This document shows, one piece after another, positions 22,969 through 37,016 of a stretch of 64,000 nucleotides of DNA. Position 1 is the first letter of the stretch, and the number at the start of each line of letters is the position of its first letter. Origin of the DNA: Minisyncoccota bacterium (GTDB taxonomy: Bacteria > Patescibacteriota > Minisyncoccia > JBAYJV01); assembly GCA_041664925.1 (NCBI GenBank), contig JBAYJV010000002.1:136302-200301 (forward strand). Reading direction: 5' to 3'. The position numbers and the translations under genes were made by a program. Under the pieces are notes generated by a model. It saw nothing but the letters and a program-made list of their open reading frames with translations. It did not search any database and had not been told where the DNA came from.

Positions 22969-23147
22969 CTCTGCCTCCTTAATATTAATATCATTGTAAC
23001 ATATTTATTCTAAAAGTCAATCTTTGTCAATGATTTTGATTAAATTAAAGAAAAGAGCCGACAATTGCCGGTTATAAGTTTTGTCTTTGTTTTAATCTAT
23101 CAAGAATTTTTATTGCAATTTCTTGTCTTGCAAACATAATTTGAAAA

Positions 23148-23687
23148 TCATAAATAGTTGTATACTTTTGTTAAATATTTTTTAAAGACTTCCTTAAACT
23201 TTAATTGATTGCCAAAACCAGGAAAAGGAATAAATTCATTATTTACTACATTATATCCTTGTTTTTTTAATATATTACTGAAGATTTCAAAAACATTCTT
23301 TTTAATAAGAAATATTGGGGTTTCTTTTGAAATTAATTTTTTTATTTCTATAATTTTCTTTTTTGAATCAAGAATGATTTTTTTATTTCTATCCTTTTCA
23401 TTTAATCTATTAATTGGATCATCTGTGGAATCTATCATGTAAAAACCTTCACTTTTAAATCGTTCAAGATAGATATTTTTATCACCTTTTCTGTACTTGT
23501 TTTTGAAGTCAGAAAAAATAGTTTCCATGATAGCCCTAAACATAAAATCATATTTTTCCTGTGAAGGATTATAAAAAAACCTTACAGAAGAATCTTCGCA
23601 TAGAGGAGGAGATTCGGCTATGATTAGATACTTTATCTTTAGAGGTTTATATTTTTCTCTTAGAATTTGTATTTGCGTTAAAGACAT
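23148..23687 (-). CDS. Hypothetical protein, AT-rich
   Basis: 179-aa ORF, no recognisable motif. Confidence 0.4.
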   Translation of the reverse strand: MSLTQIQILREKYKPLKIKYLIIAESPPLCEDSSVRFFYNPSQEKYDFMFRAIMETIFSDFKNKYRKGDKNIYLERFKSEGFYMIDSTDDPINRLNEKDRNKKIILDSKKKIIEIKKLISKETPIFLIKKNVFEIFSNILKKQGYNVVNNEFIPFPGFGNQLKFKEVFKKYLTKVYNYL

Positions 23688-23719
23688 AAAATTTTATTTA
23701 ATTTCTATATTTTATCTCT

Positions 23720-24718
23720 TTATTCCTCTTTTTCCAATTTATTTTGAACCTGTCTAATTCGTTCTTCACGATTTCCACTTAAGAGAGTATAGGAAATCTC
23801 TCTTCTTTTTAAATCATTAATAATTTGTTCTTGGAATTTAATCCGATGGGTTTCGCCTGATCTTGAGCCATCGTCTTCATAGGGAATATCTATATCGCAA
23901 ACAAACCAAAGATCGTAGCGTTGTTTATTTTTTTTAGCAATTTTAATCAATTCTGGATGCGCTTTTCCATGATAATAACGGCTGAACATTTCGGTCGTAA
24001 TTGCGTTGGTATCAGAAAAGAAATATTTGTTCGCTTTTAAAATTAAAGCATCTTCTTTTGAAAGATGCTTTTTTGCTAGATCAAGTAATTGATCCATAGA
24101 AAGTTTTCCTGAGCTATCATGATATTTATCCCAATATTCTCTGCCAAGCTCCGGCATCCATTGGGTTTTATAAATTTTCCCTAATTCTCTTGCAATTGTG
24201 GTTTTTCCTGTTGACTCAGCTCCCAAAAAAACAATTTTTTTTACAAAACTTTCATATACGACAGGATGAAGAAATTTTCTGTATTTATAAGGATTTTGAC
24301 GAATCATTGTTCCGGATATGGGAACTAATTTACGTTTAATATCAACTATAATATTTTCTGCCCCGAGCGCTTTACTGACATGCTCTCCATACCATTCACT
24401 AGAAAAGAAATGAGTAATTTTAAATGGCACCGTCTTTAAAATATATTCATCGTGTTGTTTGGTAATCCGAGAATCAAGTCCGCACTCCGATGGTCCATTA
24501 TATCCCTTTATAACCGTAACTTGAGGATAGATTTTCTTTATCCAACCAGCGCGAATATTCAAAGGAATGTCGGTAATATCAGGACAATCATAGATAAGCA
24601 CAATAACTTTATCTGTCATTTTTAGTGCCGTATCAACCAAAAGTTGATGGCCTTTATGAAAAGGCGCAAATTTCCCCAAAACTAATCCTGTTGTAAGATT
24701 CTTGGATTTTTTTTCCAT
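23720..24718 (-). CDS. nadR: Bifunctional NMN adenylyltransferase / ribosylnicotinamide kinase (NadR-like, no HTH domain)
   Basis: N-terminal nucleotidyltransferase 'GKFAPFHKGH' (HxGH), C-terminal P-loop 'FLGAESTGKTT' typical of the RNK domain; immediately downstream of pnuC. Confidence 0.75.
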   Translation of the reverse strand: MEKKSKNLTTGLVLGKFAPFHKGHQLLVDTALKMTDKVIVLIYDCPDITDIPLNIRAGWIKKIYPQVTVIKGYNGPSECGLDSRITKQHDEYILKTVPFKITHFFSSEWYGEHVSKALGAENIIVDIKRKLVPISGTMIRQNPYKYRKFLHPVVYESFVKKIVFLGAESTGKTTIARELGKIYKTQWMPELGREYWDKYHDSSGKLSMDQLLDLAKKHLSKEDALILKANKYFFSDTNAITTEMFSRYYHGKAHPELIKIAKKNKQRYDLWFVCDIDIPYEDDGSRSGETHRIKFQEQIINDLKRREISYTLLSGNREERIRQVQNKLEKEE

Positions 24719-25263
24719 GATTTATACCAGTTATAAAATCCTGTACTGGCTAGGATTAAATAAATTATATATAAACCGGCGGTCAGATAGACGCCTTTAT
24801 AAGCATAAATGCCAATCGCTAAAACATCTACCAATATCCAAAGAACCCAGTTTTCGAAAACTTTCGTCATCAGAAATATCTGGGCAATTAAGCTCATAAC
24901 GGTTGTGAATGAATCTAGGTAGGGGATTGAAGCATCGGTAAAATTCTTCAAAGAGAAACCCATAAGCAATGATCCGAAGATAAGAAAAAGAAAGGCCTGA
25001 AGCCTTTCGGTATTATTAAGAACTCTAACTTTTAATTCTGTTTTTTTCTCTCCTCCATGTTTCCAAAGATACCAGCCATAGAAACCGGTTATTATATAGA
25101 AGACCTGCTCGCCCATATCAGCGTAAAGTTTAATCTGAAAGAACATCACCCCTAGGGCTATTACGCTAATAATGCCAATGGGCCAATTGAGGATCTTTTC
25201 TTTGGCTGCTAGGTAAACACACCAAGCTCCGAAGATAACACCGACAATTTCATAGATGTTCAT
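24682..25263 (-). CDS. pnuC: Nicotinamide riboside transporter PnuC
   Basis: 193-aa multi-TM protein with PnuC-like Trp/Gly pattern; classic pnuC-nadR pairing; promoter TTGACA-16/17-TATACT with a candidate NrtR box immediately downstream of the -10. Confidence 0.7.
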   Translation of the reverse strand: MNIYEIVGVIFGAWCVYLAAKEKILNWPIGIISVIALGVMFFQIKLYADMGEQVFYIITGFYGWYLWKHGGEKKTELKVRVLNNTERLQAFLFLIFGSLLMGFSLKNFTDASIPYLDSFTTVMSLIAQIFLMTKVFENWVLWILVDVLAIGIYAYKGVYLTAGLYIIYLILASTGFYNWYKSWKKNPRILQQD

Positions 25264-25311
25264 AGTAGTAAGGTTACAGATAATTGCCTATTTTTCTTTA
25301 ACCTTTTTTAG

Positions 25312-25332
25312 TTAGTGTATCCTCTACAATTA
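25312..25332. promoter_or_regulatory. Candidate NrtR operator 1 (TTAGTGTATCCTCTACAATTA), overlapping the pnuC promoter/TSS
   Basis: GT-N7-AC core with TTAGTGT/ACAATTA arms; half-sites identical to the site at 25433-25453. Confidence 0.55.
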
Positions 25333-25432
25333 GTATAGCGCGAAAAAAAAGTTTGTCAATAGATAAGGGCCTTTTTTGTGAAAAAACCCCTTATTGTGGA
25401 TAAACCACTTGACAAGATTTTTCTTGGGAGTA

Positions 25433-25453
25433 TAATTGTACTAGATACACTAA
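25433..25453. promoter_or_regulatory. Candidate NrtR operator 2 (reverse complement TTAGTGTATCTAGTACAATTA), overlapping the -10/TSS of nrtR (autoregulation)
   Basis: Lies just after TTGACA(25410)-16-TATAAT(25432); same half-sites as site 1. Confidence 0.55.
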
Positions 25454-25465
25454 GTTATCAAATTA

Positions 25466-26148
25466 TGAAAAAAGAAGCTGTTCGGGAAAAAAAATATAAG
25501 TTTGCAGTCATTGCCACTGATGTTGTTTTATTTACCGTAAAGGATGAAAAACTCCAGGTCCTGCTTATTAAGATGAAAAAGAAATTATATAAGGAACACT
25601 GGGCGCTTCCCGGCGGTTTGATTAAATCTCAGGAATCATTGGAAACGGCAGCGAAAAGAAATTTGCTTGCTAAATCCGGTGTAAAAAATATTTATCTTGA
25701 GCAGCTCCGCACTTTTGGCGACATCAGCCGCGATCCTTTTGGAAGAGTCGTTTCGGTTGCTTATTTCGCCCTGATACCTTATAGCGGCATCAAATTGAAA
25801 ACCACCAAAAAATACGCCGGCATCAATTGGTTCCCGATTAAAAAACTTCCTGATTTAGCATACGATCATAAAAAAATGATTGCTTTGGCAGTTAAGCGAC
25901 TGAAAGCAAAACTTGGCTATACCAATATTGTTTATAGTCTTCTACCTCAGGAATTTTCCTTAAGCGATCTTCAGGAAACATACGAAATCATTTTAAATAG
26001 AAAACTCGACAAAAGAAATTTCCGCAAGAAAATCCTTTTATCAAAACTCCTGATAAGAACAAATAAAAAGGAAGGGGGAATGCCTCACAGGCCAGCAGTG
26101 ATTTATCGCTTCAAACAGCGCAGCCCCCAGATTATCGATCTGCTTTAA
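25466..26148 (+). CDS. nrtR: NrtR-family transcriptional regulator (Nudix domain + C-terminal winged HTH)
   Basis: Nudix-like 'EHWALPGGLIKSQESLETAAKRNLLAKSG'; C-terminal 'LPQEFSLSDLQETYEIILNRKLDKRNFRKKI...HRPAVIYRF' wHTH characteristic of NrtR. The ORF track starts at a GTG at 25378, but the ATG at 25466 follows a perfect promoter. Confidence 0.75.
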
Positions 26149-26175
26149 TTAACGCCTATTTTTTTTCCTCATTAG

Positions 26176-26196
26176 TTAGTGTATAAAACACACTTA
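26176..26196. promoter_or_regulatory. Candidate NrtR operator 3 (TTAGTGTATAAAACACACTTA, near-perfect palindrome)
   Basis: Between nrtR and the PP2C gene; GT-N7-AC core. Confidence 0.55.
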
Positions 26197-26243
26197 AAAG
26201 GGTTTAGTTCTTCCTGATTTTTACAAATTTTTTTACCCCTTAA

Positions 26244-26264
26244 TTAGTGTTAATAATACACATA
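26244..26264. promoter_or_regulatory. Candidate NrtR operator 4 (TTAGTGTTAATAATACACATA), overlapping the likely island promoter
   Basis: Followed by CATACT -10-like element and the AGTTCTTTA start motif at 26272. Confidence 0.5.
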
Positions 26265-26345
26265 CTCATATAGTTCTTTAGCCTAAGTAAGTAGTACTTT
26301 AACAATTTAAAAACTCACAAAGCTCTCAATAACCCCTCAAGGACG

Positions 26346-27215
26346 GTGAATGTAATGAAAAATCAATTTGAGATCGCCGGCGGAACTGTTCTGGGAACCA
26401 ATCATCAAAGATGCGGAAAAAATAATCAGGACGCTTTTTTATGGCAAATCACAGAAGATGCGGTTGTCATCGTTGTTGCTGATGGCTGCGGCTCTAAGCC
26501 ACATAGCGAAGTAGGAGCGAAAATCGGCAGCCAATTGATAGTTAATGAAATCATTACCAATCTATATGAGAATGGATTCCTAGATGCGCTTGGAAATGAT
26601 ATCGCCACAAATAACCTCTGGTCTTTAATAGAAAGAAATGTGCTGGAAAAAATCTACGCTCTGGCTCATTCAATGGACCGAGATCTTCATGCTCAGGCAA
26701 TTGCCGATTATTTTCTCTTCACAATGATCGGTGCCATCGCCACAAAAAATAAAACCATAATTTTTTCTCTTGGTGACGGCGCCTACATCATTAACGGAGA
26801 AGTAACACAAATCGGTCCCTTTCCTGACAATGCTCCTCCTTATCTCGCTTATCAATTACTGGACCCCCAGACTCTTGATATCGATCAAAGACTGCTTCAC
26901 ATCAAGACAAAGCGCATCATCGAAACACCTGAAATCAAAAATTTGCTCATCGGCACTGACGGCGTCTGCGATTTAATCAGACAGTCAGAAAAACAAATTC
27001 CCGGCAGCCAAGACCAGGTTGGTCAGATAAATTGGTTCTGGGAAAACGACAAATGTTTTTCCAATCCGGATATGATCAGACGGCGCTTGTCGATGATGAA
27101 CCGCCAAAGCTTAAGAATTGATGAAAAAAAACATCTCGCCAAAGAATCGGGAATTCTGCCAGACGACACAACTCTTGTGGTAATGAGGCAAAAAAAAGGA
27201 GGCGACAAGATGTGA
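26346..27215 (+). CDS. PP2C-family serine/threonine phosphatase-like protein
   Basis: 'GTNHQRCGKNNQDAF', 'VVADGCGS' metal-binding Asp motifs, C-terminal 'IGTDGV'; stop overlaps the kinase start by 4 nt. Confidence 0.7.
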   Translation: MNVMKNQFEIAGGTVLGTNHQRCGKNNQDAFLWQITEDAVVIVVADGCGSKPHSEVGAKIGSQLIVNEIITNLYENGFLDALGNDIATNNLWSLIERNVLEKIYALAHSMDRDLHAQAIADYFLFTMIGAIATKNKTIIFSLGDGAYIINGEVTQIGPFPDNAPPYLAYQLLDPQTLDIDQRLLHIKTKRIIETPEIKNLLIGTDGVCDLIRQSEKQIPGSQDQVGQINWFWENDKCFSNPDMIRRRLSMMNRQSLRIDEKKHLAKESGILPDDTTLVVMRQKKGGDKM

Positions 27216-29077
27216 ATGAAATCTATGTCAACGGACAACGCGTCCGCCTCAGTCAAAATAAACTCATCGGCCAGGGCGGCGAAGCGGAAATCTATGATTT
27301 GGGCAATGGCAAGGCGCTTAAGGTTTTCAAAACACCGGACCATCCCGACTTCCAGGGAAATCCTGTAGAACAGGCAATTGCCAGAGAGCGGATTTTGGAA
27401 CACCAACAAAAACTCAAGACATTTCCCAAAAATCTGCCCCACCGCATCATTGCACCCGAAGATCTGGCGTTTGATAGCACAACAAGGCAAATTGCCGGTT
27501 ATGTTATGCGCTATCTCAAACAAACAGAAGTGCTGATAAAGTATAGCGACCGCAGTTTCCGCGAACAAAGAATTTCCCAGGAAACGGTGACTAAGATTTT
27601 CCTTGATCTTTATAAAACAGTTTCGGAAGCCCATCGGACCGGCGTCGTCATCGGTGATTTCAATGATTTGAATGTCCTGGTCTCAGGGAATGAAGCCTAT
27701 CTGGTTGATGTTGACAGCTATCAGTTTGGGAAGTTCCTCTGCAAGCTCTTTACTGAGCGCTTTGTTGATCCCTTGCTTTGCGATCCAAAAGAAACAAGGC
27801 CAGTACTTGCTTTCCCTCATAACCAAAATTCCGATTGGTACGCTTTCGCTATCATGCTGATGCAATGTCTGCTTTATGTGGGACCGTACGGAGGAATTTA
27901 TAGGCCAAAAAAAGCTCCCCAGAAAATCGTAACGCAGGATTCAAGACCGCTTAAAAGGATTACGGTTTTTCATCCTGATGTCCAGTACCCAAAACCGGCT
28001 ATCCGCCTTGATGTTTTGCCGGATGAAATGCTTGAATATCTGCGCCTTACTTTCGAAAAAGACCAAAGGCGCGTTTTCCCAGAAAACCTGATTCAGAGTC
28101 TATGCTGGAAAAAATGCCTGGTCTGCGGCACAGAACATGCGCGCAATTCCTGTCCCCAGTGTTTCAAAGCTATTGTCAAAGAAATTGTCCATTTCAAAGG
28201 CCATGTTTCAGCAAGAGATATTTTCAGGACTAAGGGTATTATTTTAAAAGCAGGTCTTAACGGAAAAAACTTCCTTTGGCTCTATTACGAAGATGGTTGC
28301 TTTAAAAGAGAAAATGGCGCGATTGTCGCCCGAGAAAAACTCGATCCGCGAATGCGTTTCGGAATCAGTGACGGATCAACCCTGATCGCCAAAGGTGATG
28401 AACTTTATTTATTTAGGACAAACCAGGCGCCTGTCAAAACCAACATCGGAACTTTCCAAAACTTGCCAATGTTTGACGCCAATGAAAATCATATTTACTG
28501 GATAGAAAATAATCAACTGTTCCGTGATGGCCCATTTGGTAAGGAAGCAATCGGTAAAATTCTTGAAAACCAAACGATTTTCTGGGTTGGTCCAGAATTC
28601 GGATTCGGTTTCTATCGCGCAGGAAATCTAACCATCGCCTTTGTCTTCGACAAAGAAAAACTGGGCATCAATGACCAGGTAAAACTTCCACCCATTAAAG
28701 GACAATTAATTAGTTGCGAATGCTTCTTCGATAAGGAGCGCTGCTGGCTTTTGATCTCAACTCAGCAAAAGGGAAAAATCATTAACGATTGCGTGGTTAT
28801 TTTGAAAAATGGCGCTGTAGAATGCGTGGCGCAAGCAACTCAAGATGATGGATCCTGGCTGGGAACACTCAAGGGAAAATGCGCTTTCCGACAGTTCCTT
28901 TTCGCTCCGACTGATGAAGGTATTGTAAGAACGGAAATTGAACAGGGACAAATCGCCAAGATAAATCATTTTCCTGACACAGAGCCTTTTGTGGATAAAG
29001 ATTCACTCCTTTTTACGGACCAGAACGGCATTTATGCTGTTAACCGCCAGGATATCAAGCTCCTAAGAATCGATTAG
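27212..29077 (+). CDS. Atypical protein kinase (Gly-rich loop GQGGEAEIY, VAIK-like ALKVFK, GDFNDLN catalytic loop, DVDS) + Cys4 zinc ribbon + beta-rich C-terminal domain
   Basis: Kinase-fold motifs; 'CLVCGTEHARNSCPQCF' zinc ribbon; translationally coupled to the PP2C gene. Confidence 0.65.
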   Translation: MNEIYVNGQRVRLSQNKLIGQGGEAEIYDLGNGKALKVFKTPDHPDFQGNPVEQAIARERILEHQQKLKTFPKNLPHRIIAPEDLAFDSTTRQIAGYVMRYLKQTEVLIKYSDRSFREQRISQETVTKIFLDLYKTVSEAHRTGVVIGDFNDLNVLVSGNEAYLVDVDSYQFGKFLCKLFTERFVDPLLCDPKETRPVLAFPHNQNSDWYAFAIMLMQCLLYVGPYGGIYRPKKAPQKIVTQDSRPLKRITVFHPDVQYPKPAIRLDVLPDEMLEYLRLTFEKDQRRVFPENLIQSLCWKKCLVCGTEHARNSCPQCFKAIVKEIVHFKGHVSARDIFRTKGIILKAGLNGKNFLWLYYEDGCFKRENGAIVAREKLDPRMRFGISDGSTLIAKGDELYLFRTNQAPVKTNIGTFQNLPMFDANENHIYWIENNQLFRDGPFGKEAIGKILENQTIFWVGPEFGFGFYRAGNLTIAFVFDKEKLGINDQVKLPPIKGQLISCECFFDKERCWLLISTQQKGKIINDCVVILKNGAVECVAQATQDDGSWLGTLKGKCAFRQFLFAPTDEGIVRTEIEQGQIAKINHFPDTEPFVDKDSLLFTDQNGIYAVNRQDIKLLRID

Positions 29078-29155
29078 AAAAGGAGGCAAGTAAAAAACAA
29101 AAATGGCCGCCCGGAAAATCGAACCGCAGCAAAAAGGATCAAAGGAGGATCCGCA

Positions 29156-30217
29156 ATGAGCACGAAGAAAACAAAGGTCGCCCAACTCCCTCTTCCCAAG
29201 CACTATGATCCGCAGAATGCCACGAATGCCGATTATAGCGTTCGCGACATAACCCTGCTTCAAACCTGCGCTGAAGCCTGGCGCAAAACTCACAAAATTC
29301 ATCCTGTAAACGATGATGCTAAAAATGTTCAGATGCTTATCATTGATGACCAGGTTGATTTCAGCTTCCCGACAGGGTCCCTTTATGTGGCCGGTCGCTC
29401 AGGCACCGGCGCCATGGATGCCCATCAGAGACTTGTTGAATTCCTTTACCGATACCTCGACTTGATTTCCGGGATTACCTGCACAATGGATACTCACCTG
29501 CCTTATCAGATTTTCTATCCCAGCGCCCACCTTTTGCCGGACGGAAGCCACCCTCAACCCAACACCGTCATTTCTGCCAAGGATTATCGCGACGGAAAGT
29601 ACGAACCTAATCCGGCAATGGCTGCTCAGATTGGTTTGAGTGTGCTTGACCTAAGACGGCAATTCATCCATTACTGCGAACAATTGGAGAAAACCGGCAA
29701 ATACATGCTTTATCTCTGGCCCTATCACTGCATGCTCGGCTCTCCGGGACATCGCTTAGCTGGTGTTGTTGATGAAGTCCGCCTCTTCCATAGTTTTGCG
29801 AGAGGCGCAGCCAACATCCCGGCGATTAAGGGTGGCAATCCTTTGACCGAGCACTACTCGATTTTCTCACCAGAAGTGACAACTCTTTGGGACGGAAGAC
29901 CTATTCCTCAGGCGCAGAAAAATGAGAGACTGATCAAAACTCTCTTTGAAGCAGATGTGGTTATTATGGCGGGACTCGCGTCCAGCCACTGCGTCAAGGA
30001 AAGCATCGCCGATTTCCTGAAAGAAATCAAAGCCCAGGACGAATCCCTGGTAAAGAAAGTTTACATTCTTGAAGACTGCACTGCTGCAGTTGTCATTCCT
30101 TCGGGACCTGATTTTACCGACGATGCGAATAAGGCTTTGAAGGAATTTGAAAACGCCGGAATGCACGTTGTCAGATCAACTGACCTGATCGAATCCTGGC
30201 CTGAAATCAGGCTTTAG
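29156..30217 (+). CDS. pncA: Nicotinamidase-like cysteine hydrolase (PncA/isochorismatase family, long 353-aa form) - paralog 1
   Basis: 'MLIIDDQVDF' (Asp), 'LWPYHCMLGSPGH' (PncA WPxHC signature), 'KGGNPLTEHYSIF', 'IMAGLASSHCVKES' (catalytic Cys). Confidence 0.75.
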   Translation: MSTKKTKVAQLPLPKHYDPQNATNADYSVRDITLLQTCAEAWRKTHKIHPVNDDAKNVQMLIIDDQVDFSFPTGSLYVAGRSGTGAMDAHQRLVEFLYRYLDLISGITCTMDTHLPYQIFYPSAHLLPDGSHPQPNTVISAKDYRDGKYEPNPAMAAQIGLSVLDLRRQFIHYCEQLEKTGKYMLYLWPYHCMLGSPGHRLAGVVDEVRLFHSFARGAANIPAIKGGNPLTEHYSIFSPEVTTLWDGRPIPQAQKNERLIKTLFEADVVIMAGLASSHCVKESIADFLKEIKAQDESLVKKVYILEDCTAAVVIPSGPDFTDDANKALKEFENAGMHVVRSTDLIESWPEIRL

Positions 30218-30288
30218 GAACCAAAAAAAACGGAGGCAGGCAAGAAAGCTTGTCTGCCTCCACTCTCTCAAAAGCAAAGGAGGCTTCT

Positions 30289-31083
30289 GTGAGCGATAGC
30301 GCAAAAAAACTGATTCAGTCGGCTGCGCAGGAAGGCACAATTTCTCCTGCCACAGCAAAAGCTCTGACAGTTCACGACGTAGGTATGGAAATCGAAGCGG
30401 CTTTGGGAGTCAATGTTGACGACGTGAAGTCAACCGAAGTTGTTCTTGTTACCTTCCTGATTGACGATTCGGGCTCCATTGAAGGAGCGGGAAATACCGC
30501 AAATGTCATGCTTGGACACAATCTTGTTCTCGATGCTCTGATGAAAACCAAGCAAAAAAACAACATTCTCGTTCATACAAGAACCCTGAACGGCACGATT
30601 ATAACGCCTTATTGTCTGTTAGAAAATGCTGTTCAGCTTGATGCTTCAAACTATTTCCCTGTTGGCGGCACTCCGCTTTACGATGAGACCGTCGTAATTC
30701 TTGGAACAGTTATTGCTAAAACGGAACAGTTTTCCAAAAACGCCGTTCCAGTAAGAACAGTAACAATCATTATCACCGACAGCTGCGATCTTCATTCTCG
30801 CAAATACCGACGCCCTCAGGATGTGGCACCCATTGTCCAGGATATGTTTAAAACAGAACAGCACATTATTGCCGGTATGGGCATTGATGACCATCAAACC
30901 GATTTCAAAAAAGTTTTCGGCGATATGGGAATTCTGCCCCAGTGGATTCTGACGCCGGACAATGACCCTCACGAAATCCGCAAGGCTTTCCTGATGGTTT
31001 CCCAGTCAGCTACCAAAATCAGCCAGAACGCCCAGGGTTTCGCTCAAGCCAGCCTCGGAGGTTTCGGTAAAACAGCTCCTTAA
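30289..31083 (+). CDS. von Willebrand factor A (vWA) domain protein, TerY-like
   Basis: MIDAS 'LIDDSGSI' (DxSxS), 'GGTPLY' Thr motif, 'ITDSCD'. GTG start after RBS aaggagg; the ORF track begins upstream at a TTG at 30250. Confidence 0.7.
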   Translation: MSDSAKKLIQSAAQEGTISPATAKALTVHDVGMEIEAALGVNVDDVKSTEVVLVTFLIDDSGSIEGAGNTANVMLGHNLVLDALMKTKQKNNILVHTRTLNGTIITPYCLLENAVQLDASNYFPVGGTPLYDETVVILGTVIAKTEQFSKNAVPVRTVTIIITDSCDLHSRKYRRPQDVAPIVQDMFKTEQHIIAGMGIDDHQTDFKKVFGDMGILPQWILTPDNDPHEIRKAFLMVSQSATKISQNAQGFAQASLGGFGKTAP

Positions 31084-31350
31084 TTGTTCTTTGACAAAAT
31101 CAGGGAGGGATTGTGAAAGCATAATCCCTCCCTTTTTCAAAAAATTATTGTCATTATTCTTAAAAACGTTTAAAATCATTGACAAAACGCAAATTTATTA
31201 TAGAATAGTATGTCAGAATGATAAAGCAATTTTAGAAAATTGAAGCGGAAAAATTCGGCTCTAATTTTCTAGCCTTGATTGGTATCGAGGCTAAAGTACC
31301 TAAACAAAGCTCATAAAAAAACAGCGATAAAGGACAAGGAGGTCCAAGAA

Positions 31351-32331
31351 ATGGAAAGAATCGAAAAGGTTGATTATTTGTCAGCTGCTGGTCTGGGAAA
31401 AACCTGTCAGAAAATGCAAGGTGTCAAACCTGCATCTCGAGATCGGATACGAATTGGTTTATTGATTATTGATCCTCAAAACACATTCTGCCACCCAGAA
31501 CTTGCAGAACTTCTGGTGCCTCATGCTTGGGAAGATAATACCAGATTGATGCATTTTATCTTAGATAATATTGCAAGAATCACAGCTATTGACGTTTCTC
31601 TTGACACGCACTCGCCAATGCAGATTTTTCACCCAATCTTCTGGGTGGATAAAGATGGCAATCATCCTGCACCTGGTACCGAGATTACTCACGAAAATGT
31701 TGTAAGAGGTATGTGGCGAATCAATCCAGAAGTTGGCTATAGATTCAGTAGAACTCAGAAATGGCTTGATGATTATGCTCTCTGGTATACCAGCGAACTT
31801 GAAAAAAGAGAAAAAAAACCTTTAATGATCTGGACTTACCACGGAATCTTGGGAAGTTTTGGTCATGCATTAGATTCATCTGTAGAATACGCAATCTTTG
31901 TTCATGAAATGGCCCGCCAGACAACAAGATTCACCATCCTTAAGGGCACTAATCCGTTTACCGAATACTATTCGATCGTTGGTCCGGAAGTAAGTAAAGC
32001 CCACGATGGATCAGTAATAGACAATTTCAACTTTGAGCTAATAAGACGATTCTTGGGGTATGATACTCTGATTATTGCTGGTCAATCTAGAAGCCACTGT
32101 GCTCCTGAGTCTTTAAATGACATTATGAATAATGCTGAGTCTGCTGATGAGTTTGCTCCGAGATCAAAACTAAGAATTGGTAATATTTACTTCCTTGATG
32201 ATTGTAGTTCTTCAATTCCTGGTTTTGAGAAACAGACAAATGAAGCCTTTGCGCGTTTCGCTGCTCGTGGTCTTCACATCGTCAAATCCACCACTCCGAT
32301 GGAGGAGTGGCCCAATATTGAGCTTAACTAA
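31351..32331 (+). CDS. pncA: Nicotinamidase-like cysteine hydrolase (PncA/isochorismatase family) - paralog 2
   Basis: 'LLIIDPQNTF', 'IWTYHGILGSFGH', 'KGTNPFTEYYSIV', 'IIAGQSRSHCAPES'; same architecture as paralog 1; RBS aaggagg before ATG 31351. Confidence 0.75.
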   Translation: MERIEKVDYLSAAGLGKTCQKMQGVKPASRDRIRIGLLIIDPQNTFCHPELAELLVPHAWEDNTRLMHFILDNIARITAIDVSLDTHSPMQIFHPIFWVDKDGNHPAPGTEITHENVVRGMWRINPEVGYRFSRTQKWLDDYALWYTSELEKREKKPLMIWTYHGILGSFGHALDSSVEYAIFVHEMARQTTRFTILKGTNPFTEYYSIVGPEVSKAHDGSVIDNFNFELIRRFLGYDTLIIAGQSRSHCAPESLNDIMNNAESADEFAPRSKLRIGNIYFLDDCSSSIPGFEKQTNEAFARFAARGLHIVKSTTPMEEWPNIELN

Positions 32332-32407
32332 AAGCTTTGAGGCGAGAGAAAAGCTTCTCGCCTCCTTTCTCCGACTACTTAGTAAATATTAGGTGCTCGA
32401 AGTAAGT

Positions 32408-32554
32408 TAGTTCTTTAAAAAATAAATATAAGGCTCTAATACAGGCTTATGCGAAACAAAGCGTAGCCCCAGTACCAGAATTCGCTTCGCTCATTCGGTA
32501 CAGGGCGTAAGAGTTTATAAGTTTCGCTTTGCTCAACAACAAACACTAACGGAG
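32408..32554 (+). promoter_or_regulatory. Conserved structured leader, copy a (…taaggctctaatacaNgcttatgcgaaacaaagNgtagccccNgtacc agaattcgcttcgctcattc ggtacagggcgtaag…ctaacggaggtg)
   Basis: About 90% identical over roughly 110 nt to copies at 35510-35662 (+) and 47385-47510 (-); hairpin cccNgtacc/ggtacaggg; ends in a shared RBS. Confidence 0.6.
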
Positions 32555-32560
32555 GTGCGC

Positions 32561-33205
32561 ATGGAAGGCAAGGTCAGAATCGCTGTTGGCGGTTCTGCCG
32601 CCAACCCCCCTCATCTCGGACATTTGCAAGTATTGAGATTCTTGATTCATACTAAGCAATTTGACAGAATCATCTGGATACCTTGTGGATCAAGAACCGA
32701 TAAAAAAGACCTTGTTGAAGCTTCCCATCGTCTCGCGATGGTAAATCGTTTTATGGAAAGTTTCACTCACAAAGAAATGGAAGTGCTTGATGTACGAGAC
32801 GATGATGTTAGAGGAGACAACACGCCGACAATTGAATGGCTTGAAAGATTAACCAGAGAATTTCCTGATGCGGAGATCTGGTGGTTTACAGGTTCCGATT
32901 CGATTATTCCTCAGAAAAAATTCGGCGGAAAATCTGAAATTGAAGCTTGCTGGATCAGGGGAGAGGAGTTATTGCGCAATTATAACTTCTTAATTCTTGT
33001 CAGACCAGGATATCCGATTCCAAACAATCTCAAGTTTCCAGGCAACATTAAAATTGTCAACACGAATCTTGAAGATGTTTCAAGTTCGGAAACGCGCGAT
33101 CTGATCAAAGAGCAGGATAGCGCCTTTGAAAGACTTGTGCCAAAAAAAGTTGCAGAATACATAAAAGAAAACCATCTTTATGGATGGAAAGGAGATGGAA
33201 AGTGA
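32561..33205 (+). CDS. nadD: Nicotinate/nicotinamide mononucleotide adenylyltransferase (NadD-like)
   Basis: 'GGSAANPPHLGHL' (HxGH) and 'SSSETRDLI' (ISSTxxR) nucleotidyltransferase motifs. Confidence 0.75.
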   Translation: MEGKVRIAVGGSAANPPHLGHLQVLRFLIHTKQFDRIIWIPCGSRTDKKDLVEASHRLAMVNRFMESFTHKEMEVLDVRDDDVRGDNTPTIEWLERLTREFPDAEIWWFTGSDSIIPQKKFGGKSEIEACWIRGEELLRNYNFLILVRPGYPIPNNLKFPGNIKIVNTNLEDVSSSETRDLIKEQDSAFERLVPKKVAEYIKENHLYGWKGDGK

Positions 33206-34449
33206 ATCGTCAGAAAGATAAACCGATCATTACAAGTCTGCTCGACTCTGACTTCTATAAATACACAATGGGACAAGAAAGTTTCCATCGCCACCCAACC
33301 GCACAGGTAACATTCAGCCTAACCAATCGAACAAGATCGGTAAGGCTTGCCGATTGTGTGGATATCGGAAGGCTCAGAGAAGAATTAGACGAAGTTCGTA
33401 AATTGGCTTTTACTATTTCCAATATCCATTACCTGCGCGGCACGGACGAATATGGACAAAGAATGTTTAGGGAAGATTACCTGGAACATTTGAAGGCTCT
33501 GCGACTAGGAGCTTATGACCTCGATGTGGTCGATGGTCAATTCCATCTGGAGTTTTCTGGTCCATGGTCTGTGGTAACTTACTGGGAAACTCTTGCTCTT
33601 TCGATTCTTACGGAACTTTACACTGAGTATCAATTGAGCAAAATGAGTCGACTTGAACAAGATGCTGTTTTAGCTCGCGGATATACTCAACTTCTGGAAA
33701 AAGTTAGGATTCTCAAGAGCTTCCCTGATATAACTCTTACTGATTTTTCATCTCGACGCCGAGCTTTTAGAGAATGGCAAGATTACGTTGTTAGTGTTCT
33801 TATTGAAGAGCTTCCTGGACAATTCCGTGGAACCTCAAATGTCCTTCTCTCAGACAAATATGGTACAGTGCCAATGGGAACTGCGGCTCATGAGCGCGAT
33901 ATGATTATAGCAGGAATTATGAGCGATACTGACGAAGGTATTCTTCGAACAATCCAAATGACACTCGAGAGTTGGTGGGAAGAATACGGAGAAGCACTTT
34001 CTGTCGCTCTACCAGATACGTTCGGCACAGATGCGTTTTTTAGGGCGATGACTGCTGAACAGGCAGCAAAATGGAAGGGATTGAGACAAGATTCAGGAAA
34101 TCCATTTACTTTTGTAGATAAAGTAATCGCTTTCTATAAGAGTCATGGAATCGATCCACAAAAAAAGCTTATAGTTTTTAGTGATGGTTTGGAAATTGAT
34201 AAAATTCTTGCTATCGCAGATTATTGTCGAGGGAAGATTAGGGCAACATTTGGATGGGGAACCAATCTTGGAAACGATCTCGGACTTCAGGCTCTATCCT
34301 TGGTTATTAAGGCAACCCGTGCAAATGGCAAACCACTTGTTAAACTCAGCGATAACCTCGCAAAGGCAATTGGTCCAAAAGACGAAATTGATCGTTACAA
34401 GCGTATCTTCGGATACGATGTGATACTCAACGAACAACCAAAGTACTAA
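33202..34449 (+). CDS. pncB: Nicotinate phosphoribosyltransferase (PncB/NAPRT family)
   Basis: 'SLLDSDFYKYTMGQ' N-terminal NAPRT signature; about 415 aa; start uncertain (ATG 33184 or GTG 33202 after RBS aaaggag). Confidence 0.7.
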   Translation: MNRQKDKPIITSLLDSDFYKYTMGQESFHRHPTAQVTFSLTNRTRSVRLADCVDIGRLREELDEVRKLAFTISNIHYLRGTDEYGQRMFREDYLEHLKALRLGAYDLDVVDGQFHLEFSGPWSVVTYWETLALSILTELYTEYQLSKMSRLEQDAVLARGYTQLLEKVRILKSFPDITLTDFSSRRRAFREWQDYVVSVLIEELPGQFRGTSNVLLSDKYGTVPMGTAAHERDMIIAGIMSDTDEGILRTIQMTLESWWEEYGEALSVALPDTFGTDAFFRAMTAEQAAKWKGLRQDSGNPFTFVDKVIAFYKSHGIDPQKKLIVFSDGLEIDKILAIADYCRGKIRATFGWGTNLGNDLGLQALSLVIKATRANGKPLVKLSDNLAKAIGPKDEIDRYKRIFGYDVILNEQPKY

Positions 34450-34642
34450 AGCTTTGGGGCGAGAGAGAAAAACTTTTCTCGCCCCCTTTCTCCAGTCACT
34501 TATTATTAGGTGATTGAAGGAAGTCTGTTAGTAAGCTCAGGACAAATCCTTCGACAGGCTCAGGATAAATCCTTCGATAAATTTGTGGTTAACATGTCTA
34601 ACCACTCAGGACAAGTCAGTTCTTTAAAAAATAGACAAGGAG

Positions 34643-35377
34643 ATGATAAGAGTGAAAACGATCATGATTAACGGCAAAGAAGTACCCGTAACAGGAGAAA
34701 GCGTTGACCAAGCTATTAATAGTATAATTTTTAAGGATTGGTTGGCATCATTGAATCGACTGTTCGTAATCAAATCAATCCATTTTCAATCAGTTGACAT
34801 TTCTCCTAGGACATCAAGGGTAAAATTTATCAAAGCTAAAATAGAATTAATTGATTGTGATGGAAGTAAATTTACGAACATCATTTTCATGCGTGGCGGT
34901 GCAGTTACAATTCTCTTTGTTATTCATGTGGATAAAGAAGAATTCACAATTTTGACTCGTCAGCCTCGTCTACCCTCAGGATCATTTAGACTATTGGAAA
35001 CTCCTGCCGGTACAATTGACACGAGCGAAACTGCTGTCAAAGTTGCCGTCAGAGAAATTTGGGAAGAAGTGGGTATTAAGATTCGCGAAAATCAATTAAT
35101 AGATCTAACTGCGCACTTTCATGAAAAACGCCATAAGGGTATTTATACATCACCTGGAGCATGTGATGAGTTCCTTCGAATCTTTCTCTGTGAAATCACT
35201 ATGACAGATGGTGAGTTGGAGCAATTAAGAGGAAAACTTACAGGACTTAGAGATGAAGGCGAAAGAATTACCTTGGAGGTTTTTCGCCTAAGAGAACTTC
35301 CTTTTGAAGCTCCTGATGCCAAATCTCTTGCCGCTCTAGCCTTGTATGATGCTTACATACGAGAGCACAGTACTTAG
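34643..35377 (+). CDS. Nudix hydrolase (ADP-ribose / NAD-derivative pyrophosphatase-like)
   Basis: Nudix box 'GTIDTSETAVKVAVREIWEEVGI'. Confidence 0.7.
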   Translation: MIRVKTIMINGKEVPVTGESVDQAINSIIFKDWLASLNRLFVIKSIHFQSVDISPRTSRVKFIKAKIELIDCDGSKFTNIIFMRGGAVTILFVIHVDKEEFTILTRQPRLPSGSFRLLETPAGTIDTSETAVKVAVREIWEEVGIKIRENQLIDLTAHFHEKRHKGIYTSPGACDEFLRIFLCEITMTDGELEQLRGKLTGLRDEGERITLEVFRLRELPFEAPDAKSLAALALYDAYIREHST

Positions 35378-35397
35378 TATAAAAGCACATAAAACAA

Positions 35398-35462
35398 GAG
35401 GCGACTTAAGTCGTCGCCTCCTTTCTTGGATGACTTAGAAAACTAAGTCATCGAAGTAAGTC
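35398..35462 (+). repeat. Identical ~65-nt junction module: terminator gaggcgacttaagtcgtcgcctc + hairpin ATGACTTAGaaaaCTAAGTCAT + cgaagtaag
   Basis: Exact second copy at 36828-36892; related modules at 32336-32400 and 34452-34520, all followed by AGTTCTTTAA. Confidence 0.7.
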
Positions 35463-35509
35463 CTCCGATAGATTCGATTTACTCACTACAAGCTAAACTC
35501 AGGACAAGT

Positions 35510-35662
35510 AGTTCTTTAACAATATAATATAAGGCTCTAATACAAGTTTATGCGAAACAAAGTGTAGCCCCGGTACCAGAATTCGCTTCGCTCATTCGGT
35601 ACAGGGCGTAAGAGCTTCTAAATTTCGTTTCACTCAACAAGAGTCTCTAACGGAGGTGTAAC
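35510..35662 (+). promoter_or_regulatory. Conserved structured leader, copy b
   Basis: See 32408-32554. Confidence 0.6.
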
Positions 35663-36826
35663 ATGCAAATAGTCTACACTGGAGAAAATCTTCCTAAAAA
35701 GATTGTCAAATCTATTTTTCTTGCCGGTCCAACGCCGCGATCAAAAGAAACGAATTCGTGGCGACCGGAAGCCTTAAGAATTCTCGAAGAGAAAGGTTTT
35801 AATGGAACAGTTTTTGTTCCGGAATTCAGAAATCGCGACAAAGAATACGCTGACGATATGGAAGAAAATACTATCTCTTGGGAAGAACAAGCTCTGAATA
35901 TGGCCGATTGTATTCTTTTCTGGATACCGCGAGATCTCAAAACCATGCCGGCTTTCACAACGGATGTTGAGTATGGCGAATGGTTTAAATCAGGCAAGAT
36001 TGTTTTGGGCGCTCCAAAGAATGCTCCCAAAATGAGCTATCTTTTGAAACGCGGACAGAAATATTACATTCCGCAGGCTACAACTCTTGAAAATACTATT
36101 GATATGGCCCTAGCTATGATTGGCAATGGCGCGCTGCGTGTTGAAGGAGAATGCCAGATACCATTACACATCTGGAAAACCGGATCTTTCCAATCGTGGT
36201 ATCAAGCCCAGATTCAAGCAGGCAATCGGCTGCACAGCGCCAAAGCAGAATGGGTATTCAGAGTTGGACCAAAGAAACAAATATTCTTCATTTGGATTCT
36301 CCATGTTGATATATATATCACTGCTGAAGAAAGACACAAGACCAATGAAGTTGTTATCGGCCGTCCCGACATTTCTACGGTCGCTCTGTATATAAGAGCT
36401 GATGACATTATGGATTCTGATATTGTTCTTATTAAAGAGTTTTGCAGTCCTGCTGCGACTGCCGATGGATATGTCTGGGAACCTCCCGGCGGCTCTTCAA
36501 TTAAAGGAGAGTACGATCCCCGAAAGTTAGCAGTAGATGAGGTTTTTGAGGAAACCGGACTTAAGATTAGCCCGGATAGAATCATTTTCAATGGCGCGCG
36601 GCAAATCTATGGAACCTTGTTGTCACATAAGGCATTTCTTTTCTCTGCGGAAATCACTAGAAACGAATTGGATTGGCTTATATCTCAAATTGGCATCGTT
36701 CACGGAGTAGAAAAAGATACTGAAAGAACATATGTGGAAATTGTCAAACTTCGAGATATTTTGAGCCAAGAACTTGTAGATTGGAGCGCATTAGGTATGC
36801 TTTTCGCTGCGCTCACAAAGAAATAA
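35663..36826 (+). CDS. Fusion protein: N-terminal nucleoside 2-deoxyribosyltransferase-like (NDT/Rcl-like Rossmannoid) domain + C-terminal Nudix hydrolase domain
   Basis: N-terminal 'IFLAGPTPRS...W...CILFWIP...EYGEWFKSGKIVLGAP' NDT-like pattern; C-terminal Nudix box 'GGSSIKGEYDPRKLAVDEVFEETGL'. Confidence 0.6.
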   Translation: MQIVYTGENLPKKIVKSIFLAGPTPRSKETNSWRPEALRILEEKGFNGTVFVPEFRNRDKEYADDMEENTISWEEQALNMADCILFWIPRDLKTMPAFTTDVEYGEWFKSGKIVLGAPKNAPKMSYLLKRGQKYYIPQATTLENTIDMALAMIGNGALRVEGECQIPLHIWKTGSFQSWYQAQIQAGNRLHSAKAEWVFRVGPKKQIFFIWILHVDIYITAEERHKTNEVVIGRPDISTVALYIRADDIMDSDIVLIKEFCSPAATADGYVWEPPGGSSIKGEYDPRKLAVDEVFEETGLKISPDRIIFNGARQIYGTLLSHKAFLFSAEITRNELDWLISQIGIVHGVEKDTERTYVEIVKLRDILSQELVDWSALGMLFAALTKK

Positions 36827-36827
36827 G

Positions 36828-36892
36828 CGCTTGAGGCGACTTAAGTCGTCGCCTCCTTTCTTGGATGACTTAGAAAACTAAGTCATCGAAGT
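36828..36892 (+). repeat. Junction module, exact copy of 35398-35462
   Basis: Identical sequence. Confidence 0.7.
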
Positions 36893-37016
36893 AAGAAGTT
36901 CTTTAACAAATAATCCTCCTTCGCCCCGGCTTGCCGGGGCTTCGGAAGGATGTAATATTTTCTAAATCTCGTTTCTCTCGGTAAGAAAATCTAACAAACA
37001 CTAACGGAGGTGTAAG

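Follow-up and report, generated by a model that had tools for sequence, protein, structure and literature searches.

Gene triads that join a von Willebrand factor A (vWA) protein, a PP2C phosphatase and a protein kinase, called TerY-P triads, were reportedly described from computational analysis by Anantharaman, Iyer and Aravind in 2012. In such a triad, a TerY-like vWA protein is found together with a PP2C and a Ser/Thr kinase that carries a C-terminal zinc ribbon, and the whole has been hypothesised to be a phosphorylation switch (PMC11090510). The locus analysed here lies in a window of 64,000 nucleotides from a Minisyncoccota bacterium (assembly GCA_041664925.1, contig JBAYJV010000002.1, positions 136,302 to 200,301 of the forward strand; all coordinates below are those of the window). 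It is an operon of four genes encoding a PP2C, a kinase of 621 amino acids, a nicotinamidase and a vWA protein, preceded by NrtR-type operators. It represents a widespread and uncharacterised variant of the TerY-P-type triad, set apart by a private propeller, by the addition of a nicotinamidase and by NrtR operators. On balance, we lean towards considering it a derived TerY-P triad under NrtR control that gates nicotinamide salvage by phosphorylation, with Ser/Thr phosphorylation probably wired into the recycling of nicotinamide adenine dinucleotide (NAD).

The kinase domain gave weak tblastn matches on conjugative plasmids, where the matching genes are part of annotated vWA-PP2C-kinase triads. 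The comparison of the kinase family with the triad kinase of the Sphingomonas panacis plasmid NZ_CP014169 by hhalign reached a probability of 99% (E = 2.8e-18) over 289 columns, and both present the motifs GKGGE, GDFN and IDADSFQ as well as a zinc ribbon at the same position. The original prediction, made from the sequence of the window, had described the kinase motifs as non-canonical because of a GDFN-containing catalytic loop and a DVDS in place of DFG. Both are present, but they are not idiosyncratic: since GDFN and DADSFQ are also found in the plasmid triad kinase, they are a signature of the clade of TerY-P-triad kinases. The PP2C of the plasmid triads belongs to the same Pfam family as that of the window (PP2C_2; BLASTP of the window protein against the plasmid triad PP2C, E = 3e-8), and the overlap of 4 nucleotides between the PP2C and kinase genes is common to the window operon and the canonical plasmid triads. 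Concerning the vWA protein, hhalign against the canonical triad vWA gave a probability of 17%, covering only the T...D region of the metal-ion-dependent adhesion site (MIDAS). The window protein counts as a vWA by its fold and its MIDAS, while its assignment to the TerY-like clade is unproven.

The window operon also differs from the canonical triads in several aspects. Its order is PP2C-kinase-nicotinamidase-vWA, whereas TerY-P triads are arranged vWA-PP2C-kinase, and the inserted nicotinamidase is an obligatory fourth gene, unlike the three-gene layout of TerY-P. The window kinase ends in a family-specific propeller instead of the nucleic-acid-binding modules of TerY-P kinases (HhH, Topo-type zinc ribbon or OB); the plasmid triad kinases compared here have HhH at the C-terminus, in one case together with a Topo-type zinc ribbon. 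Moreover, the surroundings are NrtR operators and NAD-salvage genes, and not the ter, restriction and DNA-processing genes found around TerY-P. PADLOC returned weak PD-T4-6 and MkoA kinase matches on the window and no match to a TerY-P model. As the canonical plasmid triads give the same weak matches, PADLOC is uninformative about triad membership.

Another described system deserves comparison. In actinobacteria, the neighbourhoods of GAP1-N2 GTPases include a kinase that carries a zinc ribbon plus a domain rich in beta-strands, a PP2C and a vWA protein that stands alone (Kaur et al. 2020, PMC7159879). This system was compared with the window by its description only; it is restricted to actinobacteria and centred on the GTPase, and no link to a nicotinamidase or NrtR is described. 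In the literature searched, no link between NrtR, a kinase, a phosphatase and a nicotinamidase was found, with the 2012 TerY-P paper and the tables on nrtX and nrtY lying outside the search, so an earlier description is possible.

The kinase open reading frame (ORF) occupies positions 27212 to 29077 of the + strand and encodes 621 amino acids. Its GTG start (27212-27214) overlaps the end of the upstream ORF, in which ATG at 27210-27212 is the last sense codon and TGA at 27213-27215 is the stop, so that GTGA forms the overlap, in agreement with the original prediction, and the upstream ORF is indeed a PP2C (PF13672). An AGGAGG Shine-Dalgarno sequence is located 8 nucleotides 5' of the GTG, and the N-termini of the homologues (MxVY/IYV) align with this start, which supports it. 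The ORF is 100% identical to a protein annotated as hypothetical in a metagenome-assembled genome (MAG) of Candidatus Paceibacterota. An antisense ORF of 203 amino acids (27023-27634, - strand) spans the PP2C/kinase junction; it has no support as a gene and is most likely an artefact opposite the coding strand.

The homology search with the kinase retrieved 2,065 protein clusters, of which the best 120 are about 620 amino acids long and about 50% identical over the full length. Invariance was judged in an alignment of 35 of these 120 sequences. The G-loop (GQGGEA, residues 20-25; GKGGEA in the family form) conserves G22, E24 and A25, and ALKVFK conserves K37 together with K40. In the catalytic loop GDFNDLN (residues 148-154), G148, D149, D152 and N154 are invariant, as are D166, D168 and S169 of the DVDS motif (residues 166-169), which reads 'DADS' in the family where DFG would be expected. 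The same is true of D208 and W209 in the alpha-F motif SDW (residues 207-209) and of all four cysteines C302, C305, C314 and C317, which bears out the Cys4 ribbon proposed originally. This conservation of the kinase motifs and of the Cys4 set is far beyond chance.

AlphaFold2 (AF2), run from the alignment, modelled the 621 residues with a mean pLDDT (predicted local distance difference test) of 90.3 and a pTM (predicted template modelling score) of 0.54, the latter meaning that each domain is modelled confidently, but not the way the domains are placed relative to one another. Residues 1 to about 295 (27212-28096) form a bilobal kinase domain, followed by the Cys4 zinc ribbon (residues about 299-320; 28106-28171) and by an all-beta region of 29 predicted strands (residues 326-621; 28187-29077). 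Foldseek against the PDB matched the kinase part to PknB, CaMKII, Aurora B and BRAF, with a target-normalised template modelling score of about 0.6. It matched the C-terminal part to seven-bladed propellers, namely the WD40 domain of WDR91 and the BPB domain of DDB1, as well as to Kelch. No significant match to the kinase was obtained among PDB sequences, either by sequence or by profile search, and hence the kinase fold is assigned by structure prediction alone; the other profile matches of the kinase (LanL, LanKC, Bud32, RIO1) were weak. The original prediction had recognised kinase-fold motifs, all of which are present, and left the type of fold to be classified as eukaryotic-like or HipA- or CotH-like, with an ATP-grasp-type fold as a further alternative. 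The fold is eukaryotic-like, and no HipA-, CotH- or ATP-grasp-type structure appeared among the 50 best Foldseek matches. A pseudokinase was rejected as well, given that none of the catalytic residues (Lys, Asp, Asn and Asp) varies across the family. Judged by its motifs and predicted fold, the 621-residue protein is probably an active Ser/Thr protein kinase.

The C-terminal domain, for which a propeller had been suggested as one possibility, is a beta-propeller according to structure prediction, probably with seven blades. No Pfam repeat family was matched by it, and WD40, Kelch, NHL or PQQ repeats were not recognised in its sequence, only fold matches being obtained. Its conserved motifs include GFGFYRAG and FPDTEPFV. 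A search with the propeller only among 1.84 billion representative proteins found 556 relatives, and the 150 matches listed were all either proteins of 552-669 amino acids with a C-terminal propeller or shorter, fragment-like sequences. The relatives are thus essentially all kinase-propeller proteins, and the propeller seems to be exclusive to this kinase family.

Among the eukaryotic-like Ser/Thr kinases of bacteria, some have a propeller as sensor domain, such as the PknD type of Mycobacterium tuberculosis. As in that type, the kinase domain is followed by a beta-propeller, and the kinase domain of PknB is among the best structural matches. In contrast to it, the window kinase has no transmembrane segment and no recognisable NHL or WD40 sequence repeats, a zinc ribbon serves as linker, and the kinase domain belongs to the GDFN/DADS clade.

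The phosphatase gene (26346-27215, + strand) encodes a PP2C_2-family Ser/Thr phosphatase (PF13672, E = 1.3e-24), whose true start is possibly the ATG at 26355. The Asp motifs for metal binding are present (NQD, ADGCG, TDG, DDTT), and orthologues with 33-46% identity lie directly 5' of the kinase in related loci. Downstream of the kinase, positions 29156 to 30217 (+ strand) encode a long-form nicotinamidase of 353 amino acids, PncA-like and with an isochorismatase fold. The NCBI and JGI name of the long form is 'nicotinamidase', and some relatives match PF00857. The window protein had no Pfam match, and the cassette enzyme falls below the curated cut-offs (20 bits vs 174 for NF008623). The family profile nevertheless matches M. 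tuberculosis PncA (3pl1) in three colinear motifs, those of D8, WPxHC and C138, and all 22 sequences compared share the catalytic residues D64, K225 and C279 and the metal ligands D112, H114 and H191.

The fourth gene (30250-31083, + strand) encodes the vWA-domain protein of 277 amino acids, identified by its AF2 model (pLDDT 87, pTM 0.85), by Foldseek, whose top matches were all vWA or integrin I-domains, and by its MIDAS residues. The MIDAS is complete and invariant (D72-x-S74-x-S76, T141, D177), and the protein has a helical N-terminal extension. No match to Pfam, the VWA model included, or to PDB sequences was obtained, even with the family profile; the UniRef label of one homologue is VWFA domain protein. 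The operon, in the order PP2C, kinase, nicotinamidase and vWA, is closed by an intrinsic terminator (31102-31137, + strand) with a 14-bp stem and a U5 run, whose RNA fold has -24.5 kcal/mol and a z-score of -6.35, none of 200 shuffles being equally stable.

Some further features of the vWA family should be mentioned. The orthologues end, at the C-terminus or a few residues from it, in a conserved tail of the form ...FSxxAxGGFG that is predicted to be disordered and might serve as a docking peptide or as a phospho-acceptor. In one Moraniibacteriota locus (L076, 4226-5074) the orthologue carries a CxxC...CxxC insert, similar to a zinc ribbon, inside the vWA domain. Apparent internal stops in two orthologues were dismissed, being only the terminal stop codon inside the coordinate range.

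Regarding regulation, nrtR (25465-26148, + strand) lies upstream of the operon and encodes a Nudix-like sensor joined to the NrtR winged helix (PF21906, E = 8e-23; PF00293, E = 2e-13). Its start is likely the ATG at 25465, within a longer ORF that opens at 25378. The Nudix box is degenerate, RNLLAK replacing REUxEE, as expected of a non-catalytic sensor. Four putative NrtR-type operators occupy the intergenic regions on both sides of nrtR. Operator 1, TTAGTGTATCCTCTACAATTA (25312-25332), overlaps the -10 element of the minus-strand pnuC-nadR promoter, which a promoter scan placed at 25359-25332 (TTGACA-16-TATACT). Operator 2, TAATTGTACTAGATACACTAA (25433-25453), overlaps the -10 element of the nrtR promoter, which has the consensus TTGACA-16-TATAAT in the same scan. 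Operators 3, TTAGTGTATAAAACACACTTA (26176-26196), and 4, TTAGTGTTAATAATACACATA (26244-26264), were found by pattern search 5' of the PP2C-kinase operon. The operator consensus is a 21-bp palindrome, TTAGTGT-N7-ACACTAA, which occurs five times in the 64 kb with up to 3 mismatches, four of them in the two intergenic regions flanking nrtR. NrtR sites have been published as 21-bp palindromes with a GT-N7-AC core (PMC2330246); the palindrome fits this description. An Rfam scan of 23000-37000 detected no riboswitch and no other RNA family.

The arrangement resembles the NrtR regulons of Rodionov et al. 2008 (PMC2330246) in the Nudix-like and winged-helix regulator, in the 21-bp operator overlapping promoters and in the NAD-salvage targets pncB, nadD and pnuC-nadR. 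The targets published there are metabolic genes, draG and an unnamed nrtX-nrtY pair, and a kinase, PP2C or vWA gene is not mentioned among them. With up to 2 mismatches, an operator was present within 350 bp 5' of the PP2C ORF in 56 of 73 related loci, the background rate being 0.009 sites per 380 bp. The operator-bearing loci include distant phyla and loci without an adjacent nrtR (nrtR is adjacent in 50 of 82), which indicates that the operator travels with the cassette.

When one genome per species was scanned by pattern, 435 genomes proved to encode a relative of the kinase. The hosts include Patescibacteria, Cyanobacteria, Sorangium, Gammaproteobacteria, Planctomycetota, Acidobacteriota, Gemmatimonadota, Clostridia and an Aenigmatarchaeota archaeon. 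Gene order was tested by tblastn of the window neighbours against 82 related loci, 67 of which had enough flanking sequence. The order PP2C-kinase-nicotinamidase-vWA was found in 62 of these 67, from at least 8 phyla plus the DPANN archaeon, and a chance neighbourhood was thereby ruled out. The spacing between the PP2C and kinase genes is more variable: the 4-nucleotide overlap occurs in several loci, most have 0-200 nucleotides, and some cyanobacteria have 0.8-1.2 kb with an ADP-ribosylglycohydrolase gene in between. This means that co-transcription is conserved and that translational coupling is not universal. The original prediction had taken the overlap to imply stoichiometric co-expression; the two genes do share an operon, and the overlap recurs in relatives and in the plasmid triads, but in view of the varying spacing and the inserted gene this was an over-reading. 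The tightly buffered switch proposed for the kinase/phosphatase pair is reasonable but incomplete, the pair being two of four conserved genes behind NrtR operators. Recurrent neighbours of the other loci were pncB, nadD, nadE, prs, Nudix, ADP-ribosylglycohydrolase and NADAR genes, and restriction or abortive-infection genes were not among the recurrent ones in these neighbourhoods.

Taking the NrtR precedent, in which ADP-ribose releases the regulator from DNA (PMC2330246), the NAD-linked switch that we favour could work as follows. When NAD is cleaved and ADP-ribose builds up, NrtR would leave the DNA and the four proteins would be made together. The kinase, competent by its motifs, would bind a partner or ligand through the propeller and phosphorylate a protein of the module, most likely the vWA protein or the nicotinamidase, with NrtR as an alternative. 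The PP2C would undo this phosphorylation, and the vWA protein might bind an acidic or phosphorylated peptide at its MIDAS, leading to assembly or release of a complex. The output would be a gated conversion of nicotinamide to nicotinate, feeding the adjacent PncB-NadD salvage route.

Several observations weigh against this proposal. Binding of NrtR to the operon region and the response to ADP-ribose are predicted from the motif only, and the activity and substrate of the kinase are predictions as well. In Pfam, the kinase stays below the gathering threshold of Pkinase (PF00069; 16.1 bits vs 31.7), and the alpha-C Glu is not conserved in the 35-sequence alignment, where H64 and Q65 are invariant. 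The five loci that depart from the conserved order, all cyanobacterial, have PP2C-kinase or a lone kinase and no adjacent nicotinamidase or vWA gene. Furthermore, a stand-alone nicotinamidase paralogue is located 200 bp 3' of the cassette, and long nicotinamidases outnumber the kinases as families (3433 vs 2065 clusters), from which it follows that the enzyme needs no kinase in general. Finally, TerY-P-like modules whose kinase has a different C-terminus, including OB-fold variants, have been reported to be anti-phage (PMC11090510).

This last point leads to the main rival, a role in biological conflict, which is a possible if unlikely explanation. The cassette would then be an anti-phage or counter-counter-defence module in which a TerY-P-like switch is induced by ADP-ribose from NAD-depleting immunity or phage attack, and the nicotinamidase would act as an effector that destroys nicotinamide, either denying the phage the substrate for reconstitution of NAD+ or lifting the inhibition of host NADases by nicotinamide. 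Such a role would be in line with the homology to the TerY-P triad kinases, with the anti-phage activity reported for related modules and with the weak PADLOC matches to the PD-T4-6 kinase, and some loci do contain ADP-ribosyltransferase (DUF4291)-NADAR, poly(ADP-ribose) glycohydrolase (PARG) or ADP-ribosylglycohydrolase genes. The patchy occurrence in different phyla and on both sides of the bacterial-archaeal divide, with identities of about 50%, would also suit it, and implies that the entire cassette moved horizontally, operator included. Nevertheless, the recurrent neighbours are NAD-salvage genes and not restriction, abortive-infection or other defence genes, conservation is high and uniform and not that of a fast-evolving system, and the cassette is kept beside pncB and nadD in the minimal genomes of Patescibacteria. 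No plasmid match to the full-length kinase was obtained at E 1e-10, and the relatives found in phages consist of the kinase domain only. A conflict role is therefore a poor fit with slow evolution, metabolic neighbours and retention in minimal genomes. A more specific proposal sees in the cassette an immune or counter-immune device triggered by ADP-ribose, where NrtR senses the ADP-ribose from NAD cleaved during infection and the triad licenses the nicotinamidase to remove nicotinamide, starving the phage's NAD+ reconstitution or locking the cell into NAD depletion; this we regard as decidedly improbable.

It is distinctly unlikely that the kinase/PP2C pair acts instead on NrtR, or on other NAD-metabolic or global proteins, with the nicotinamidase and the vWA protein as co-regulated cargo outside the kinase complex. 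The frequent adjacency of nrtR is in line with this idea, post-translational control of NrtR by acetylation has been cited (reference list of PMC9503650), and the five cyanobacterial loci show that the pair or the kinase can be found without the other two genes nearby. However, in 62 of 67 loci all four genes keep a strict order and are tightly spaced, which speaks for a functional unit, and vWA, PP2C and kinase are an established, co-inherited triad elsewhere. That the protein is not a protein kinase, but phosphorylates a small molecule (e.g., ADP-ribose, nicotinamide riboside or a related nucleotide) or is a dead scaffold, appears highly improbable. The metabolic context, the sub-threshold Pkinase score, the weak matches to RIO1 and Bud32 and the lack of a conserved alpha-C Glu would be compatible with it. 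On the other hand, the structures that match best are genuine protein kinases, the alpha-F SDW typical of protein kinases is invariant, and the pairing with a PP2C is obligatory in a family homologous to the TerY-P kinases; as for a dead scaffold, the invariance of all the catalytic residues speaks against it.

With TerY-P triads having been only hypothesised as phosphorylation switches (PMC11090510), this NAD-linked variant offers a tractable way in. It is genetically coupled to a nicotinamidase that is easily assayed, the ligand of its regulator is known (NrtR, ADP-ribose), and its strong conservation extends over at least 435 species-level genomes, from minimal Patescibacteria and a DPANN archaeon to culturable hosts. 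If the kinase gates nicotinamide salvage, Ser/Thr phosphorylation would be an added layer in the control of NAD homeostasis in bacteria, and a function would be gained for more than 2,000 clusters of 'hypothetical' proteins of 620 amino acids and for a propeller family without sequence relatives elsewhere. Were the immune-device proposal true, a TerY-P-type triad would have its first defined input, output and enzyme.

The related loci presented other features. An ADP-ribosylglycohydrolase gene interrupts cassettes of cyanobacteria and that of a single MAG with the label Rhizobium, in most cases separating PP2C from kinase (L001, 7101-7916; also L034, L046, L056, L067, L077, L079 and L080). In Blastocatellia (L002 and L004, 12.2-17.8 kb), DUF4291, NADAR, Band7 and PARG-like genes lie 3' of the cassette, with nrtR at the far end, in what looks like a larger ADP-ribose-themed island. 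A Candidatus Aenigmatarchaeota MAG (L021) carries a complete cassette beside pncB, about 50% identical to the bacterial ones, which points to transfer between domains of life. Compared with the window copy, the cassette nicotinamidases fall into two identity classes (63-71% or 33-51%), with loci L002, L014, L015, L017, L038, L040 and L047 on one side and the rest on the other, while the kinases are uniformly 45-52% identical; this suggests that subtypes of the enzyme have been exchanged within a stable cassette. The phage relatives come from two records of huge uncultured phages, LR756511.1 (595 kb) and LR745208.1 (485 kb). They are distant (24-28% identity over residues 10 to 290, approximately) and have no propeller.

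In the window, the cassette is part of a 13-kb NAD island that contains nadR-like, pnuC, nrtR, the cassette itself, a second long nicotinamidase, nadD, pncB, a Nudix gene and a Nudix fusion. The nadR-like and pnuC genes (23720-25263, - strand) are both driven by the operator-covered promoter that diverges from nrtR, the nadR-like gene overlapping the end of pnuC by 37 nucleotides. The nadR-like product has nicotinamide mononucleotide adenylyltransferase and ribosylnicotinamide kinase domains and is without the helix-turn-helix of the enterobacterial protein. The second long nicotinamidase (31279-32331, likely start ATG 31352) is 33% identical to the cassette copy and is located just 5' of nadD-pncB. 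It is monocistronic, with a near-consensus promoter at 31179-31206 and a terminator hairpin after 32331. The same layout of cassette, paralogue and nadD is found in L006 and L022. At the end of the island, positions 35663 to 36826 encode a fusion of 387 amino acids that joins a nucleoside 2-deoxyribosyltransferase-like domain (PF15891, E = 2.8e-13) to a Nudix domain.

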